Source: a virus
IMG/VR virus record: IMGVR_UViG_3300042472_000301
Span: 1 to 64,000 of that record
Strand: one strand, 5' to 3'
DNA: 64,000 nucleotides
Shown here: piece after piece, positions 4,382 through 9,063 of the stretch
Layout of the letters: every line of letters begins with the position of its first letter
Position numbering within the stretch: the first letter of the stretch is position 1
Position numbers and translations under genes: made by a program
The notes under the pieces: model-generated
Database searches by the model: none
Told to the model about the DNA's origin: nothing
What the model saw: only the letters and a program-made list of their open reading frames with translations

Positions 4382-5470
4382 ATGCTTCACTCAACTATCG
4401 TAGGTGGCTCGACCGCCAAACGCGTTATCGCTTGCCCAGCCTCAATCGACTTGGTTGCTAAGATGCCGCCAAAGCCCTCTAGCAAGTACGCTGACGAAGG
4501 CACACTCTTACACGACGCCATTAGCCAAATCCTTGACTGCAAGGCGACACCCGAGTCTGTGATCGGTATGGTTCACGAAGGCATTACGCTTACACAGGAG
4601 TTATACGATGACAAGATTGCTGTGGCGTTGTCGGCGTTGGATGAAATTGATCCCGATAAGCAGATGGAATTTGCTGTGGAAAGCAGCGTCAACTTTGGTG
4701 ATCTTTTGCCTGGCGTGTTTGGAAGTGCTGATCTACTTGGCCGGATCGGCAAAAAGGCAATTGTTTTGGATTGGAAATTCGGCAATGGCGTGGCTGTCGA
4801 GGCAACTGAGAACGAACAGGGTATGTTCTACGCTGCTGCTGCCATGCGTACGCCGGAAACTCAATGGGTGTTTGAGGATGTTGAAGAAATTGAAATCATT
4901 ATTGTTCAACCGCCGATGGTGAAGCGTTGGGTGACAACGCCCGAGCGTATCGCTAAGTTTGAGTTTGACCTGATAGCTGCGGTCAACGGCCCACGCACTA
5001 AGCTAGAGTCCGGTGAGCATTGCCGGTGGTGTGCAGCCAAGCCCACTTGCCCGTTGGTTACGGGTGCTGTTGACCGTGCGCTCAAGACCGCGCTTGTGCG
5101 CCTTGACGCTGACAAGATAAGTGAGTACCTCACCCAAGCCGATGAACTCGAATCGTGGATCGACGCCGTGCGCGTACTGGCCTACGATATGTTAGAGAAC
5201 AACGTGCGTGTGCCAGGATACAAACTGGTCGCCAAGCGCGGCACACGTCAATGGGTGAACGATGAAGCGCCGGTAAAATTATTAGGTGACAAAGCGTATG
5301 AGAGTAAGTTAATCTCTGTAGCCCAAGCCGAAAAAATTATTGGCAAAAAGAACTTTCCGTCTGACGTAGCAGTAAGCGTTAGCTCGGGCAGTACGTTGGC
5401 AGCGGAATCTGATCCACGGCCAGCGGTGATCGACCTAGGTAAGCAACTCGCTAACCTAAAACTACTCTAA
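4382..5470 (+). CDS. DUF2800-type PD-(D/E)XK (Cas4-like) nuclease
   Basis: H...GGS..R..CP, EGT..H, FGSAD, DWKFG, HCRWC...TC, PGYKLV. Confidence 0.88.
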   Translation: MLHSTIVGGSTAKRVIACPASIDLVAKMPPKPSSKYADEGTLLHDAISQILDCKATPESVIGMVHEGITLTQELYDDKIAVALSALDEIDPDKQMEFAVESSVNFGDLLPGVFGSADLLGRIGKKAIVLDWKFGNGVAVEATENEQGMFYAAAAMRTPETQWVFEDVEEIEIIIVQPPMVKRWVTTPERIAKFEFDLIAAVNGPRTKLESGEHCRWCAAKPTCPLVTGAVDRALKTALVRLDADKISEYLTQADELESWIDAVRVLAYDMLENNVRVPGYKLVAKRGTRQWVNDEAPVKLLGDKAYESKLISVAQAEKIIGKKNFPSDVAVSVSSGSTLAAESDPRPAVIDLGKQLANLKLL

Positions 5471-5482
5471 AAGGTACTCTAA

Positions 5483-6109
5483 ATGTTTAACTTAGCTAAT
5501 CTACCGCAAGTAAAATCTCTCTCTACAGCCCTGCGTACTATCCAAGCAGAAGTTGGCCCAACTGGCGTTGTTATCATCAAGATGGACAAGACCGGTCATT
5601 GGGTTTTTGGTGCTGACCAAACCGAAGTCGAAGCTGACTCAACTTGGGCGGTCAATCCTTTTTCGTTTGTCCACGGCTACATTGCGTGGGGTGACGGTGA
5701 AGTATTGGCTGAGAAAATGGTGTCGGTATCTGAGCCATTGCCTGAGATGGATGACGCACCACCAAGCGCCAAACGTGGTTGGGAAGTGCAGGTCGGCATG
5801 AGCATAAAGTGTTTGACCGGCGAAGACAAAGGTTTGGAAGCGCGTTACACCACCACATCAGCGGGTGGCAAGCGTGGTGTACAGACCTTGGCTGTTGCGA
5901 TTGCTGAACAAGTTGATAAAGATCAGTCTAAACCTGTGCCTGTCGTGTTGCTCAAAAAGGAACACTATCAGCACAAGTCGTATGGCCGCATCTTTACACC
6001 TCTGTTTGACATTCAGTCGTGGGTCGGCATGGACGGTGAAGAGCCAGTTGTTGAGGCAGAAGAAGTTGCCGAGGCAGCACCCGCACGTCGTCGTAGGAGC
6101 GCAACATGA
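5483..6109 (+). CDS. Putative single-stranded DNA-binding protein
   Basis: Lies between DUF2800 and pol; aromatic beta-rich core (YQHKSYGRIFTP) and acidic tail. Confidence 0.65.
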   Translation: MFNLANLPQVKSLSTALRTIQAEVGPTGVVIIKMDKTGHWVFGADQTEVEADSTWAVNPFSFVHGYIAWGDGEVLAEKMVSVSEPLPEMDDAPPSAKRGWEVQVGMSIKCLTGEDKGLEARYTTTSAGGKRGVQTLAVAIAEQVDKDQSKPVPVVLLKKEHYQHKSYGRIFTPLFDIQSWVGMDGEEPVVEAEEVAEAAPARRRRSAT

Positions 6110-6279
6110 AACTTGACCTCTCATTAGACGAGATCAATAAAATCTTGGGTGTACTTGGGCGTCAGCCTTACCAAGAAGTTGAGCAATTAATTGCCAAGGT
6201 TCGTCGTCAAGCGTTACCGCAGTTGCAAGAGCCTGAAGCAGAAGAAGGTGTTGTTTACTATCCAAAAGTAGCCGAGTAA
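6106..6279 (+). CDS. Small hypothetical protein (57 aa, MKLDLSLDEINKILGVLGRQPYQEV...)
   Basis: Read by hand; ATGA overlap and AGGAG RBS. Confidence 0.7.
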   Translation: MKLDLSLDEINKILGVLGRQPYQEVEQLIAKVRRQALPQLQEPEAEEGVVYYPKVAE

Positions 6280-6381
6280 GGTTCAGGGGGCGGTTAGGCA
6301 AGCATTTGAGGATGTCGTAAGTGCGTGTTTTTCTTGCCTTCCAACGCGTATGCAGTAACGGCCAAATCAACGCCCCCACCT
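6279..6381 (+). ncRNA. Candidate structured RNA with pseudoknot
   Basis: GGGGGCG(6286-92)/CGCCCCC(6371-77) outer stem; nested stems; AGGCAAG(6296-6302) complementary to loop CTTGCCT(6333-39). Confidence 0.55.
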
Positions 6382-6401
6382 ATAAATTAAGGTAGAGTCA
6401 A

Positions 6402-7181
6402 ATGGAACCATTAAATTTTTGTCGTCAGATTAAAAAATCGTACGCCGAATCGTGGCGACTTGATTATATTAAAAAAGAACTACCAAAAATGCCTGTAGAT
6501 GTATTAATAAAAGGTTTAGATTCAGCGGTTAAATTTACTTTGCCTAACGACGGTAAAATTATAGAAGATTCAAAATTAAAAGGTCTTATTGACATTACTG
6601 AGTTACGTTTGCCGTATAAAGATATTGTTTTAGAATTTGTTTTAGTTGGTTCAAGATTAAAAAAAATAGTTATCCATGCGATTGAAGATGAATCGCGTAT
6701 AGTGATATGTGTTTGGGGAGGAACAGATAATGCGTGGTTGCCTTTTGTGCTTGCAAGCATACCTAAAATAAATTTTATACGGGTTAACGCAGACAATAGT
6801 TTAAGTTTTGCCGTTCAAAGGCATTTGATAGAAGAAAAATATAAAACAGAAATGAATTTATTGTCGGGTTTGGGCGCTGACACGTTGCTTAGTTTTCTTA
6901 ACGCGTTAGCTTGTAGTAATGTTCATACCGAAAAGTTACCTACCCGTAAGCCTAGCAAAACTCTTGGTGCGTTGCCCTTTGATGAATACCATGTGCTGAC
7001 CATCGACCGTCCAGCGGGCACCGGCAACGGCCACGCGGGAGGTAGTCACCGCAGCCCCCGCGAACACTTGCGTCGGGGCCACATAAGACGTTTGCCAACT
7101 GGCAGCAAAATATGGGTTAACGCAGCGGTCATTAACGCAGGGGCGGGTGGCAAAATCCGTAAGCAATATGCTATGGGTTGA
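6402..7181 (+). CDS. Hypothetical protein; AT-rich N-terminal domain plus SPR.H.RRGH.R C-terminal motif
   Basis: 259-aa ORF; visibly lower GC over ~6400-6930. Confidence 0.75.
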   Translation: MEPLNFCRQIKKSYAESWRLDYIKKELPKMPVDVLIKGLDSAVKFTLPNDGKIIEDSKLKGLIDITELRLPYKDIVLEFVLVGSRLKKIVIHAIEDESRIVICVWGGTDNAWLPFVLASIPKINFIRVNADNSLSFAVQRHLIEEKYKTEMNLLSGLGADTLLSFLNALACSNVHTEKLPTRKPSKTLGALPFDEYHVLTIDRPAGTGNGHAGGSHRSPREHLRRGHIRRLPTGSKIWVNAAVINAGAGGKIRKQYAMG

Positions 7182-9063
7182 CTTTGAAACCCGTAGCCAC
7201 TGTGACCTTAAACGTCACGGTGTCTACAACTACGCCCAAGACGGTACAACTGAAGTGCTGTGTATGTCCTACGCGTTCGATGACGAAGACGTGGCCACTT
7301 GGACGTCCGGCCCATTCCCCCAACGTGTACGCGATCATAAGGGTTTGATCTACGCCCACAACGCAGCCTTTGAGCGCTTAATCTTTTGGTACGTCTTACA
7401 GATCAATTTCAAATTAGAGCAGTTCTATTGCACCGCAACACAAGCGCGCGCAAACTGTGCACCAGGGAGCCTTGAAGATGTGGGCCGGTTCGCCGGTGCA
7501 AGCATGAAGAAGGATTACCGTGGCGCACAGCTTATCCGTGCGCTATGTGTACCGCCGTTTAAAGACGACCCTGCGCTGATGCTTGAAATGGTGCAATACT
7601 GTGAGCAAGACGTGCGCGCCATGCGCGCGGTTAGCCAAAGCCTACGCCCCTTATCTAATGAGGAGTTATTTGATTATCATGTCAACGAAAAAATCAACGA
7701 CCGAGGTGTACTGGTGGACGTGCCTCTTGCCAGCGCAGCCATCTCTTACGCGGCCATTGAACTCGCGGACATACAGTCCATTGTCAGAACCGTCACCAAT
7801 GGCGCGATCACGTCAGTCCGCTCGCCGAAGATGCGCGAATGGGTTAAAGAAAGACTAAGCCCCGAACAACTTAAACTAATGGAAGTGGAAGATGGAAAAT
7901 ATTCAATCGACAAGCGCGTACGCGCAAACTTACTTGCGGTCGAAGACCTACCGCCCGACGTTGCCGAGGTTATCCAATGTGCCGATGATCTCTGGGCGTC
8001 GTCGGTCGCAAAGTTCTCACGCTTACGCGACTTGGCAGATGTGGAGGACAATCGCGTCCGTGGAGCCTTTGTGTTCGCCGGAGGATCGGCTACTGGTCGT
8101 GCGTCTAGCTATGGCGCGCAAGTACACAACTTCACACGCAAGTGCGCCAAAGCGCCCGAGTCTGTTAGAGAGAGCATGGTTCTCAGACAGCCCATCGTTC
8201 CCCGTTTTGGCAAAAGAGTTACTGACGTTCTAAAGGGTATGTTACGCCCCGCGATCATACCCGCCAAGGGTAAGTCCTTGGTGGTCGCCGACTGGAGTCA
8301 GATCGAAGCGCGGATGACCCCGTGGTTGTCAGGGCGCGGCGATGACGTGCTAGACGTGTTCCGGTCGGGCCGCGATATTTATGTGCGTGAGGCGGCGGCG
8401 ATGTACAAGATACCCGAGTCCGAAGTCACCCTTGACCAAAGGCAGATCGGTAAGGTCGCAATCCTCGCTTGCGGGTTCGGTGGTGGCATTGGCGCGTTCT
8501 CTGCGATGGGTCGCGCCTACGGATTGACCATGACCGAGTCGGACGCGCAGCGTACCGTTGATGCCTGGCGCCGTGCAAACCAATGGGCCGTCAGGTATTG
8601 GCAAGAGTTGGAAACTGGTTACATGATTGCTATGCGTAACAAGGGCAAAGAAATCGTGGCGGGTAGGGTAACCTACCTGTATGACGGGCAGCATCTATGG
8701 TACGCTTTACCCTCGGGTCGCATCCTCTGTTACCCCTACGCCAAACTTGAAGAAGATGGAATTTCATACGCCAAAGCAGCATGGAAGCCCGCCGCCGACG
8801 CTAAAGAGTGGCCGCGCGCGCGATTATGGCGTGGCTTGGCCTGTGAGAACATCACCCAAGCCTGTGCGAACGACGTACTACGTTACGCTCTCCGAGCCCT
8901 TGACGACGTTGTACTCCACGTTCACGACGAAATTGTTATTGAAACCGATCAGCCCGAAACCGTCACCGAGCGGTTAAGGCAAGTTATGTGTACGCCGCCC
9001 CCGTGGGCGCAAGGTCTGCCACTAGACGCCGAGATTCAAACAATGACTCGGTACGGCAAGTAA
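7168..9063 (+). CDS. DNA polymerase, family A (APSE-like) with 3'-5' exonuclease
   Basis: DFET, AHNAAFER, TGR, ADWSQIEAR (motif A), RQIGKVAILACGFG (motif B), HVHDEI (motif C). Likely ATG at 7168. Confidence 0.95.
   Translation: MLWVDFETRSHCDLKRHGVYNYAQDGTTEVLCMSYAFDDEDVATWTSGPFPQRVRDHKGLIYAHNAAFERLIFWYVLQINFKLEQFYCTATQARANCAPGSLEDVGRFAGASMKKDYRGAQLIRALCVPPFKDDPALMLEMVQYCEQDVRAMRAVSQSLRPLSNEELFDYHVNEKINDRGVLVDVPLASAAISYAAIELADIQSIVRTVTNGAITSVRSPKMREWVKERLSPEQLKLMEVEDGKYSIDKRVRANLLAVEDLPPDVAEVIQCADDLWASSVAKFSRLRDLADVEDNRVRGAFVFAGGSATGRASSYGAQVHNFTRKCAKAPESVRESMVLRQPIVPRFGKRVTDVLKGMLRPAIIPAKGKSLVVADWSQIEARMTPWLSGRGDDVLDVFRSGRDIYVREAAAMYKIPESEVTLDQRQIGKVAILACGFGGGIGAFSAMGRAYGLTMTESDAQRTVDAWRRANQWAVRYWQELETGYMIAMRNKGKEIVAGRVTYLYDGQHLWYALPSGRILCYPYAKLEEDGISYAKAAWKPAADAKEWPRARLWRGLACENITQACANDVLRYALRALDDVVLHVHDEIVIETDQPETVTERLRQVMCTPPPWAQGLPLDAEIQTMTRYGK

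Follow-up and report, generated by a model that had tools for sequence, protein, structure and literature searches.

The window analysed here, a 64,000-nucleotide (nt) stretch of virus DNA (positions 1 to 64,000 of IMG/VR record IMGVR_UViG_3300042472_000301), carries the early replication operon of a tailed lake phage, and an intergenic gap of 122 nt on the plus strand of this operon raises the question of what it encodes and what that is for. [quoted passage not shown] Homologue comparison was decisive: on this evidence, positions 6286 to 6377 of the plus strand are one copy of a conserved pseudoknotted RNA of 92 nt, which is followed by a short tail (6378 to 6381) and consists of four nested helices and a 7-bp pseudoknot joining a bulge to the terminal loop.

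We gathered 90 loci via the two flanking proteins and then used blastn to find the RNA, which gave 17 copies at 74 to 98% identity. The collection was extended with a covariance model (R1) that was built without the pseudoknot and with two pattern scans of IMG/VR. The pattern of the first scan demanded GAGGATG and RCCT and returned 72 loci; that of the second demanded neither, but contained CCAAAT, and returned at least 118 loci. The family thus comprises about 90 distinct sequences on more than 110 IMG/VR contigs, and its covariation is strong, that of the 7-bp pseudoknot included. Two separately fetched alignments of 60 and 31 distinct sequences gave nearly identical outcomes. Standard pairs were present in 98.3% of cells over 29 pairs, compared to 38 to 51% when the 3' partners were slid. 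Both sides changed in 20 to 21 of the 29 pairs, and the observed covariation was reached by none of 500 shuffles.

The pseudoknot (AGGCAAG, 6296 to 6302; CTTGCCT, 6333 to 6339) was paired in 99 to 100% of cells, and six of its seven pairs changed on both sides; this helix lay outside the search model, and the alignment was not fitted to it. About 10 different pseudoknot sequence pairs occur in the family, every one of them complementary, and among the protein-anchored homologues the helix switches from AGGCAAG/CTTGCCT to AACCGAG/CTCGGTT and to AAGUCAG/CUGGCUU. The two halves were deleted together in three loci (L109 and L119/L147; loci are cited by our L numbers). These pseudoknot-less variants (L109, 6988 to 7080; L119, 11367 to 11458; L147, 2513 to 2604) lack the 13-nt bulge and six loop nucleotides at identical positions and retain helices P1 to P4 and the invariant AGGAUG/CCAAAU loop described below. 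With about 90 distinct sequences in two separately fetched alignments behind it, the pseudoknot is among the better-supported ones that are not yet catalogued.

Across the family, G-U or U-G pairs numbered 69 and A-C or C-A pairs 11, indicating that the plus strand, sense for the flanking genes, is the one that folds. This one-sided tolerance, specific to one RNA strand, bears on whether the element could act as DNA, without any RNA function, as a replication origin, a recombination or insertion site, or an inverted repeat like a miniature inverted-repeat transposable element (MITE). Its place in a replication module, next to an AT-rich stretch, with genes inserted on both sides and identity breaking at its borders, would suit such a role. 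However, the pseudoknot and four irregular helices covary, there is a single copy per genome, the operon copies are always co-oriented with the genes, and there are no terminal direct repeats, so that we regard a DNA-level element as the least probable of the explanations weighed here. A MITE or a repeat of the repetitive extragenic palindromic (REP) type was rejected as well, with one copy in the whole 92.9-kb IMG/VR record, one per locus in relatives, and the same co-orientation with genes in operons.

The anatomy as corrected by the homologues is serial and unbranched, with the strand order P1-PK-P2-P3-P4-PK'-P4'-P3'-P2'-P1' (PK, pseudoknot). P1 (GGGGGCG, 6286 to 6292; CGCCCCC, 6371 to 6377) was paired in 100% of cells, with covariation at two inner pairs (CG/UA and GC/UA/UG/CG), and has 7 bp and an initial G in all of the approximately 90 copies. 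Between P1 and P2 is a 13-nt bulge, in which the 5' strand of the pseudoknot lies. P2 (TTGA, 6306 to 6309; TCAA, 6367 to 6370) shows compensatory changes from UA to CG or AU and from GC to AU and becomes TCAA/TTGA in three relatives (L004, L005, and L001). It leads into a four-by-four internal loop (GGAU, 6310 to 6313; CAAA, 6363 to 6366) that is invariant in all of the roughly 90 distinct copies, as are the longer motifs AGGAUG (6309 to 6314) and CCAAAU (6362 to 6367). The invariance of AGGAUG holds in copies fetched with a pattern free of this motif, and both motifs were present in copies found via the flanking proteins. P3 (GTCGT, 6314 to 6318; ACGGC, 6358 to 6362) was paired in 91 to 95% of cells, with four of five pairs covarying, and P4 (GTGCGT, 6321 to 6326; ACGCGT, 6344 to 6349; 6 bp, two of them G-U in this copy) was paired in 99%, with covariation at six of six pairs. 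The 17-nt terminal loop L4 (6327 to 6343) is composed of a GUUUUU linker, the CTTGCCT strand, and a UCCA linker, and the linker lengths are conserved. About 20 nucleotides outside the helices are invariant. The tail, ACCU in the window, begins with RCC in about 80% of copies: of 88 copies, 71 start the tail with ACC or GCC and a further 6 with C-ACC, and ACC is kept even in stand-alone copies, where no gene start is nearby.

Homologue covariation bore out the outer stem, the GTCGT/ACGGC stem, and the pseudoknot of the sequence-only reading, but not its other pairings. The ATTTG/CAAAT stem, the 9-bp GTGCGTGTT/AACGCGTAT inner register, and an AGGT/ACCT extension of the outer stem were each paired in about 79% of cells with no compensatory change. 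The first two give way to P2 and to the 6-bp P4, respectively, and the extension is missing in the divergent half of the family, as is a P0 pairing of RCCU with the 5' flank, which we rejected as a conserved helix. The same reading had the RNA filling the whole gap; it does occupy most of the 122 nt, but positions 6382 to 6401 hold a leader (AUAAAUUAAGGUAGAGUCAA), rich in A/U and poor in G, that contains UAAA/UUAA units, together with the Shine-Dalgarno (SD) sequence of the next open reading frame (ORF). Related copies have two to four (U/C)UAAA units at this place.

Single-sequence folding was at chance, with minimum free energy (MFE) z-scores of -0.77 for the plus strand and -0.19 for the minus strand, and only the outer stem appeared in the MFE or centroid fold. 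With ViennaRNA, the nested fold supported by covariation scored -20.9 kcal/mol and the pseudoknot duplex about -9.3 kcal/mol. MFE folding misses the real structure because a competing fold scores -28.7 kcal/mol compared to the -20.9 kcal/mol of the nested fold.

Searches of known families agreed with the sequence-only reading, which could assign the RNA to none. An Rfam 15 cmscan of positions 5000 to 8000 at E ≤ 10 gave three chance-level matches, none of them on 6286 to 6377 of the plus strand, and the whole window at gathering score gave nothing. ARAGORN found no tRNA or transfer-messenger RNA (tmRNA) genes in the window or in L110, L132, L111, and L102. Among 50,697 GenBank phages, blastn gave one match (69% identity), which lay inside the SSB-type gene, and none over the RNA. 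Among 185,579 bacterial and archaeal genomes, a single copy was detected, on the minus strand of a contig of a Rhodoferax sp. metagenome-assembled genome (MAG; L220, JAURGS010000011.1, 3650 to 3960). The contig is phage-like and 24.6 kb long and has the same layout of SSB gene, RNA, and family A DNA polymerase (PolA) gene; it is probably of phage origin and was either binned with a Comamonadaceae genome or is integrated in one, and this one copy gives a weak hint that the hosts are Comamonadaceae. As far as we searched, the family is new to Rfam and to the literature, and it could overlap the 8,495 anonymous candidate structured RNAs listed in a bulk IMG/VR survey (PMC10690425).

Three metatranscriptome contigs from three lake runs (X20, X22, and X24) cover positions 6075 to 6371, RNA included, and leave 6410 to 6760 uncovered, which proves nothing. 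Such contigs cannot show RNA ends, strand, or level, and they are weak evidence of expression because DNA carry-over is possible.

The sequence-only reading had left a choice between a small RNA, a ribozyme-like RNA, and a cis-regulatory RNA. A structured phage RNA was upheld, and of the three roles the cis-regulatory one is favoured here, with the small RNA as a rival, and the ribozyme gained no positive support. A new class of self-cleaving ribozyme would cleave the early polycistronic transcript at the junction of the SSB gene with the one after it, and small ribozymes are common between phage genes. The RNA is intergenic, and its covarying helices surround the 20 or so invariant nucleotides. 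In twister, a hairpin with internal loops, pairing takes place between the terminal loop and an internal loop or bulge upstream of it, and the present pseudoknot joins loop to internal loop in the same way. However, the covariance models of twister, pistol, hatchet, and hammerhead, like the other Rfam ribozyme models, gave no match at E ≤ 10, the pseudoknot-less variants persist, nothing indicates a cleavage site, and the metatranscriptome contigs run through 6274 to 6371. A self-cleaving ribozyme is therefore improbable. A fold like that of the hepatitis delta virus (HDV) or theta ribozymes (P1-P2-P3-P3'-P1'-P4-P4'-P2') is excluded by the covariation-supported strand order, which in general form is A-B-C-D-E-B'-E'-D'-C'-A', unlike the HDV-like nested double pseudoknot, and no Rfam HDV-type match was obtained. 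In the packaging RNA (pRNA) of phi29, loop complementarity acts between molecules, and the complementarity of bulge loop and hairpin loop could conceivably act in that manner here instead of within one molecule. Unlike twister or pRNA, the RNA has no Rfam match, and these phages encode a large terminase and need no pRNA.

Several other readings of the gap were rejected. For an intrinsic terminator, the hairpin of the window copy is followed by ACCUAUAAAUUAAGG with no U tract, and a consensus scan called no terminator on the plus strand. The earlier statement that there is no U-tail thus holds for this copy but not for the family, in which 18 of 90 distinct members have at least four T's within 10 nt after P1, mostly past the 3-nt RCC spacer. 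A recoding signal was considered because a stop codon lies 6 nt before the pseudoknot; read-through reaches TAG after five sense codons (GGT TCA GGG GGC GGT), and the upstream ORF varies between copies. The mini-ORF AUG-UCG-UAA within the invariant motif is not conserved in length. A CsrA-type GGA site or an internal SD sequence (RAGGAUG) is speculation, with one site per RNA, far from a start codon.

The position of the RNA among genes was counted over 97 distinct contexts. A same-strand ORF stops 5 to 11 nt before P1 in 81 of them, most often 6 to 7 nt before. The next start lies within 12 nt after P1 in 43 of the 97 contexts, and none of these 43 starts has an SD sequence; 27 of them open ORFs of at least 550 amino acids (aa), which is polymerase size and which, where checked, proved to be PolA or another DNA polymerase. 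In 35 further contexts the start is 13 to 60 nt after P1, with an SD sequence in 16 of the 35, and in about 16 contexts no ORF begins within 120 nt. The genes downstream are mixed: PolA, exonuclease, methyltransferase, small ORFs, or none.

Upstream of the RNA, most copies have a 208-aa protein gene of the phrog_9528 type, with or without a 57-aa insert. In a second lineage the upstream gene encodes an Enc34/gp2.5-type SSB (PF10991), with another polymerase family downstream; in a third it encodes a phrog_27714 protein, and in a fourth a phrog_18140 protein, with an exonuclease downstream. BLAST detected no similarity of these upstream proteins to one another. AlphaFold2 was used to model the 208-aa protein (pLDDT 76.6) and the phrog_27714 protein (weakly, with a pLDDT of 57.5), and both models had PhiC31 gp3 (9teh_I) as their best structural match, with Z scores of 8.5 and 7.3, respectively. 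Both also matched T4/RB69 gp32 (Z, 4.3 to 6.0) and other single-stranded DNA binders with the oligonucleotide-binding (OB) fold; for the 208-aa model, the Z scores against OB-fold SSBs (RB69/T4 gp32 and PRD1 P12) were 4.3 to 4.8. Foldseek of the 208-aa protein against the PDB gave nothing at E ≤ 0.001, and neither of the two unknown upstream proteins could be placed in a family with the ESM Atlas. In most contexts the gene before the RNA is plausibly SSB-like, and at least three families unrelated in sequence provide it. The "SSB gene" label of the sequence-only reading is plausible to the same degree, resting on mid-range structural Z scores and on gene position.

To place the RNA among its alternatives, we compared the slot between the SSB-type and PolA genes in 80 loci anchored on the SSB-type protein, and three forms were seen. 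In the first, the two genes overlap stop to start (UGAUG or UAAUG) or overlap an inserted ORF. The second consists of a small GC hairpin or textbook terminator and, after it, a strong SD sequence (GGAAAGGAG); about 15 distinct contexts have this form. In the third, a large RNA is framed as stop codon, 5 to 8 nt, GGGG...CCCC, RCC(U), 7 to 12 nt, and AUG, and none of 16 distinct contexts has an SD sequence. At least six unrelated RNA interiors, the pseudoknotted family included, use this GGGG...CCCC-RCC frame, indicating that the frame outweighs the interior for the boundary role. The alternative slot RNAs had no Rfam match at E ≤ 0.1. At least five of them, 60 to 230 nt long (L036/L056/L058/L062/L064, L037, L067, L028/L039/L048, and L027/L033/L044), have an AAUA-GGGG...CCCC-RCCU frame and an SD-less PolA AUG, and several have the GAA/AGUA strands typical of an S-turn.

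The RNA has accessory genes inserted next to it at either end (57 aa upstream and 259 aa downstream), and identity breaks at the RNA edges. In L144 the RNA is 98% identical and the 259-aa protein only 54%; in L109 the 259-aa protein is 98% identical and the RNA is the pseudoknot-less form, with 78% identity. REP hairpins in Escherichia coli malEFG act as intercistronic stabilisers and are simple stem-loops with many copies per genome. The PeSLs of T4-type phages (PMC2839356) resemble the present RNA in lying at a cistron boundary within an operon, in their swaps with hairpins or terminators, in their adjacent accessory genes, and in mosaic breakpoints at their edges. In contrast to the RNA, which is single copy and has a conserved tertiary fold and no called promoter, PeSLs are simple stem-loops that carry promoters and occur in many copies per genome.

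From the observed fold, strand, conservation, and placement, the absence of an SD sequence, and the interchangeability with hairpins, terminators, and overlaps, we tentatively favour a function read from this genomic grammar: the RNA may serve, in cis, as a boundary element behind the SSB-type cistron, shielding or attenuating the SSB message and tying translation of the next gene to it. The RNA would be transcribed as part of the early replication operon. Its GC-clamped, pseudoknot-locked hairpin would halt 3'-to-5' exonucleases and, where U runs come after the hairpin, as T runs do in 18 of 90 copies, transcription would be partly halted, so that the SSB message may outlast and outnumber the message downstream. 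A phage needs far more SSB than polymerase, and message protection and attenuation would suit an SSB-type gene for this reason. P1 would set the upstream stop codon, 5 to 8 nt before it, beside the SD-less start, 7 to 12 nt after it, and would mask that start. Because of this placement and masking, the next gene would be translated mainly by coupling: ribosomes that have just terminated on the upstream cistron would open the base of P1 and then translate the next gene, which is PolA in the commonest arrangement. In the window, a 259-aa gene with an SD sequence of its own (AAGGUAGAG, 11 to 19 nt past P1) is inserted next to the RNA, and thus only the protective and attenuating role would apply there directly.

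Several observations weigh against a boundary element. The window copy has neither a U tract nor a called plus-strand terminator. Plain hairpins serve the boundary role in relatives, and the invariant AGGAUG/CCAAAU loop and the pseudoknot exceed what that role appears to need. In roughly 16 of the 97 contexts, no ORF starts within 120 nt. The absence of an SD sequence could be partly trivial, as a 7- to 12-nt spacer is too short for one. In a random-library screen, predicted structure just past the stop codon was reported to lower coupling (PMC12548453). Finally, copies on the opposite strand upstream of terS (8 contigs) and copies in clusters of terminator-plus-TATACT units cannot be cis elements of the neighbouring messages there.

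The opposite-strand copies are on eight lambdoid-like contigs (L193, L166, L173, L170, L194, L175, L185, and L195), in which the RNA runs opposite in strand to both neighbours. In L193 (6228 to 6338, minus strand), it lies between a 146-aa helix-turn-helix-like gene, the TAA stop of which abuts P1 on the other strand, and the terS/terL/portal genes. The helices of the L193 group are all Watson-Crick, and both strands could therefore fold. Four contigs have the RNA within clusters of units made up of a terminator and TATACT; in one case a different framed RNA stands in tandem with it. The tandem units (L132, minus strand, about 560 to 830; L110, 3400 to 3700) consist of an intrinsic terminator, a TATACT box, a conserved leader (TCGTCACGTGA), and a framed RNA; in L132 a copy of the pseudoknotted family is followed by a second, different framed RNA. 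These units have the look of small-RNA genes clustered in a different type of phage.

Such copies bear on the possibility that the RNA is a stable, autonomous small RNA with a trans role, for instance as a partner of some phage or host protein, and that it is either released from the operon transcript or transcribed alone. A tRNA- or 4.5S-like end, a 5' cut by RNase P, and 3' trimming would then produce it, as for the C4 RNA of P1/P7 and pre-4.5S RNA. The opposite-strand and clustered copies, which cannot be cis elements, are what a trans-acting RNA would allow, and the RNA is found in several unrelated phage backbones, indicating that it moves as a module. The 20 or so invariant nucleotides outside the helices fit the same idea. 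Its ends have the features of an RNase P substrate of the pre-4.5S/C4 type, namely a G at +1, an end helix close to 7 bp long, and a 3' RCC; P1 has exactly 7 bp and an initial G in all copies, and the RCC tail, at about 80% overall, is present in all of the stand-alone ones. E. coli 4.5S RNA starts with GGGGGCU and ends with CCCCCACCC. However, no promoter was called before the stand-alone copies by a consensus sigma-70 scan; there is no conserved single-stranded seed; and the nucleotide at -1 is mostly A or C, whereas RNase P prefers U. ARAGORN and the Rfam C4 and signal recognition particle (SRP) models found no match either (for bacterial SRP [4.5S] RNA, RF00169 domain IV, none on the element), and the 4.5S RNA of the copy-bearing Rhodoferax MAG, the host candidate, is a different sequence with different ends.

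RNase P processes pre-4.5S RNA, tmRNA, phage M3 RNA, C4 antisense RNA, pseudoknotted tRNA-like structures, and some mRNAs (PMC11143913), and it cuts a pseudoknot substrate in an RCCA-dependent manner (PMC12710915). Its non-tRNA substrates (pre-4.5S, P1/P7 C4, and phage M3; PMC11143913) share with the present RNA a G-initiated, GC-rich 7-bp terminal helix, RCC, and a position in or near phage operon transcripts, but there is no sequence or covariance-model similarity, and the -1 nucleotide differs as stated. Since stand-alone copies with an ACC tail and a G-initiated 7-bp P1 resemble these substrates, a small RNA acting in trans is a serious rival to the boundary element and a real possibility, although on balance an unlikely one.

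The association with SSB-type genes also recalls the gene 32 operator of T4. In an SSB-responsive translational operator of this style, the pseudoknot would nucleate the phage SSB, which would spread cooperatively in the 3' direction across the A/U-rich, unstructured stretch where the next cistron starts and repress that cistron when free SSB is in excess. In T4 and RB69, a 5' pseudoknot is followed by more than 40 nt of unstructured RNA with UUAAA/UAAA repeats and the ribosome-binding site inside (PMC535899). The RNA adjoins SSB-type genes in several lineages, and it is followed by G-poor (U/C)UAAA leaders such as ACCUAUAAAUUAAGG and GUAAAGUAAAGU or by an SD-less PolA start. In the window, the pseudoknot is likewise followed by an A/U-rich UAAA tract with a ribosome-binding site (6378 to 6404, ACCUAUAAAUUAAGGUAGAGUCAAAUG), so that, as with the T4/RB69 operator (PMC535899; PMC3014915), a phage pseudoknot tied to an SSB gene precedes a G-poor UAAA tract with the next start. 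However, the T4 operator is an H-type pseudoknot of about 28 nt that lies upstream of gene 32 and serves autoregulation, whereas the RNA has 92 nt and four helices, shows no sequence relation to it, and in 81 of 97 contexts lies on the downstream side of the SSB-type gene; the stand-alone copies are not beside an SSB gene at all. The same RNA follows sequence-unrelated SSB families, and after a single SSB family come six different RNAs or none. RNA and SSB family thus vary independently, which is the opposite of specific protein-RNA recognition and weakens the operator to a doubtful, quite unlikely explanation.

A riboswitch, in which a ligand would stabilise P1 and set the output of the downstream replication gene, would agree with the aptamer-like size, the pseudoknot, the invariant loop nucleotides, and a P1 that abuts the start codon. 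However, Rfam gave no match, the downstream genes are heterogeneous or lacking, and no alternative pairing that could serve as an expression platform is present. The opposite-strand and stand-alone copies and the single match in 185,579 bacterial and archaeal genomes, on a phage-like contig, also speak against it, and we consider a riboswitch very improbable.

A more far-reaching form of the boundary element would extend to all of the framed slot RNAs. They may be structure-bridged coupling devices that hold the stop codon and an SD-less start side by side across 100 to 230 nt of folded RNA, so that ribosomes finishing at the stop would start again on the polymerase gene; their interchangeable interiors would be cargo RNAs that serve a separate function in trans, linked to SSB-type genes. 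We think this unlikely as it stands. Ribosome shunting on the cauliflower mosaic virus (CaMV) 35S RNA is a eukaryotic 40S phenomenon; the likeness to it is that the stop and the start lie a few nucleotides from the base of a stable structure with an interchangeable interior. The accepted mechanisms of coupling are RNA unfolding and reinitiation, and coupling declines with linear distance (PMC12548453, PMC10666635). Bacterial stop/start or unfolding coupling (PMC6728339, PMC10666635, PMC12548453) resembles the present case in the SD-less downstream gene and in the UGAUG/UAAUG of relatives at the same junction, but it involves overlaps or very short linear gaps, whereas here a folded RNA of 105 to 115 nt lies between stop and start.

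The genes around the RNA in the window (5483 to 9063) are all on the plus strand. The SSB-type gene (208 aa, phrog_9528; 5483 to 6109), assigned by its PHROG match and its position in a DUF2800-X-PolA order, is the usual upstream partner of the RNA. A 57-aa ORF (6106 to 6279) lies between it and the RNA, with its TAA stop (6277 to 6279) 6 nt before P1. This ORF has no family and an identity of merely 56 to 70% among close relatives; in relatives of the L002/L011/L162 type it is missing, and the SSB stop codon takes the same position, 5 to 6 nt before P1. The 259-aa ORF (6402 to 7181) between the RNA and PolA was found in only 10 loci and has no Pfam or PHROG match. Its G+C content is 30 to 39% over the first approximately 600 nt, compared to about 50% in the surroundings, and it looks like a moron. 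The GC-rich C-terminal part of about 60 aa (HxxSPxxHxRRGHxR-like) overlaps the PolA start at 7165. PolA itself (7165 to 9063) starts 7 to 12 nt after P1 in relatives without the insert, which is the commonest arrangement. Farther upstream are a DUF2800/PD-(D/E)XK exonuclease and a divergent nuclease plus an SNF2-type helicase, and a primase-like gene follows PolA; no RNA polymerase gene was present among the ORFs scanned. The record is 92.9 kb long, compared to 35 to 39 kb for IMG/VR contigs with the same replication module; the label "phage A" in the sequence-only reading suggests that more than one phage genome may be joined in it.

The RNA would add a well-supported family, with about 90 distinct sequences, a covarying pseudoknot, and no Rfam entry, to the few pseudoknotted phage RNAs, and it offers a compact natural fold for structural study. 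If the structure-bridged form of coupling were true, it would be a bacterial counterpart of ribosome shunting. The clear genomic grammar of the family leads to a testable model of how a phage may set its ratio of SSB to polymerase and of whether translation in bacteria can be coupled over a folded RNA.

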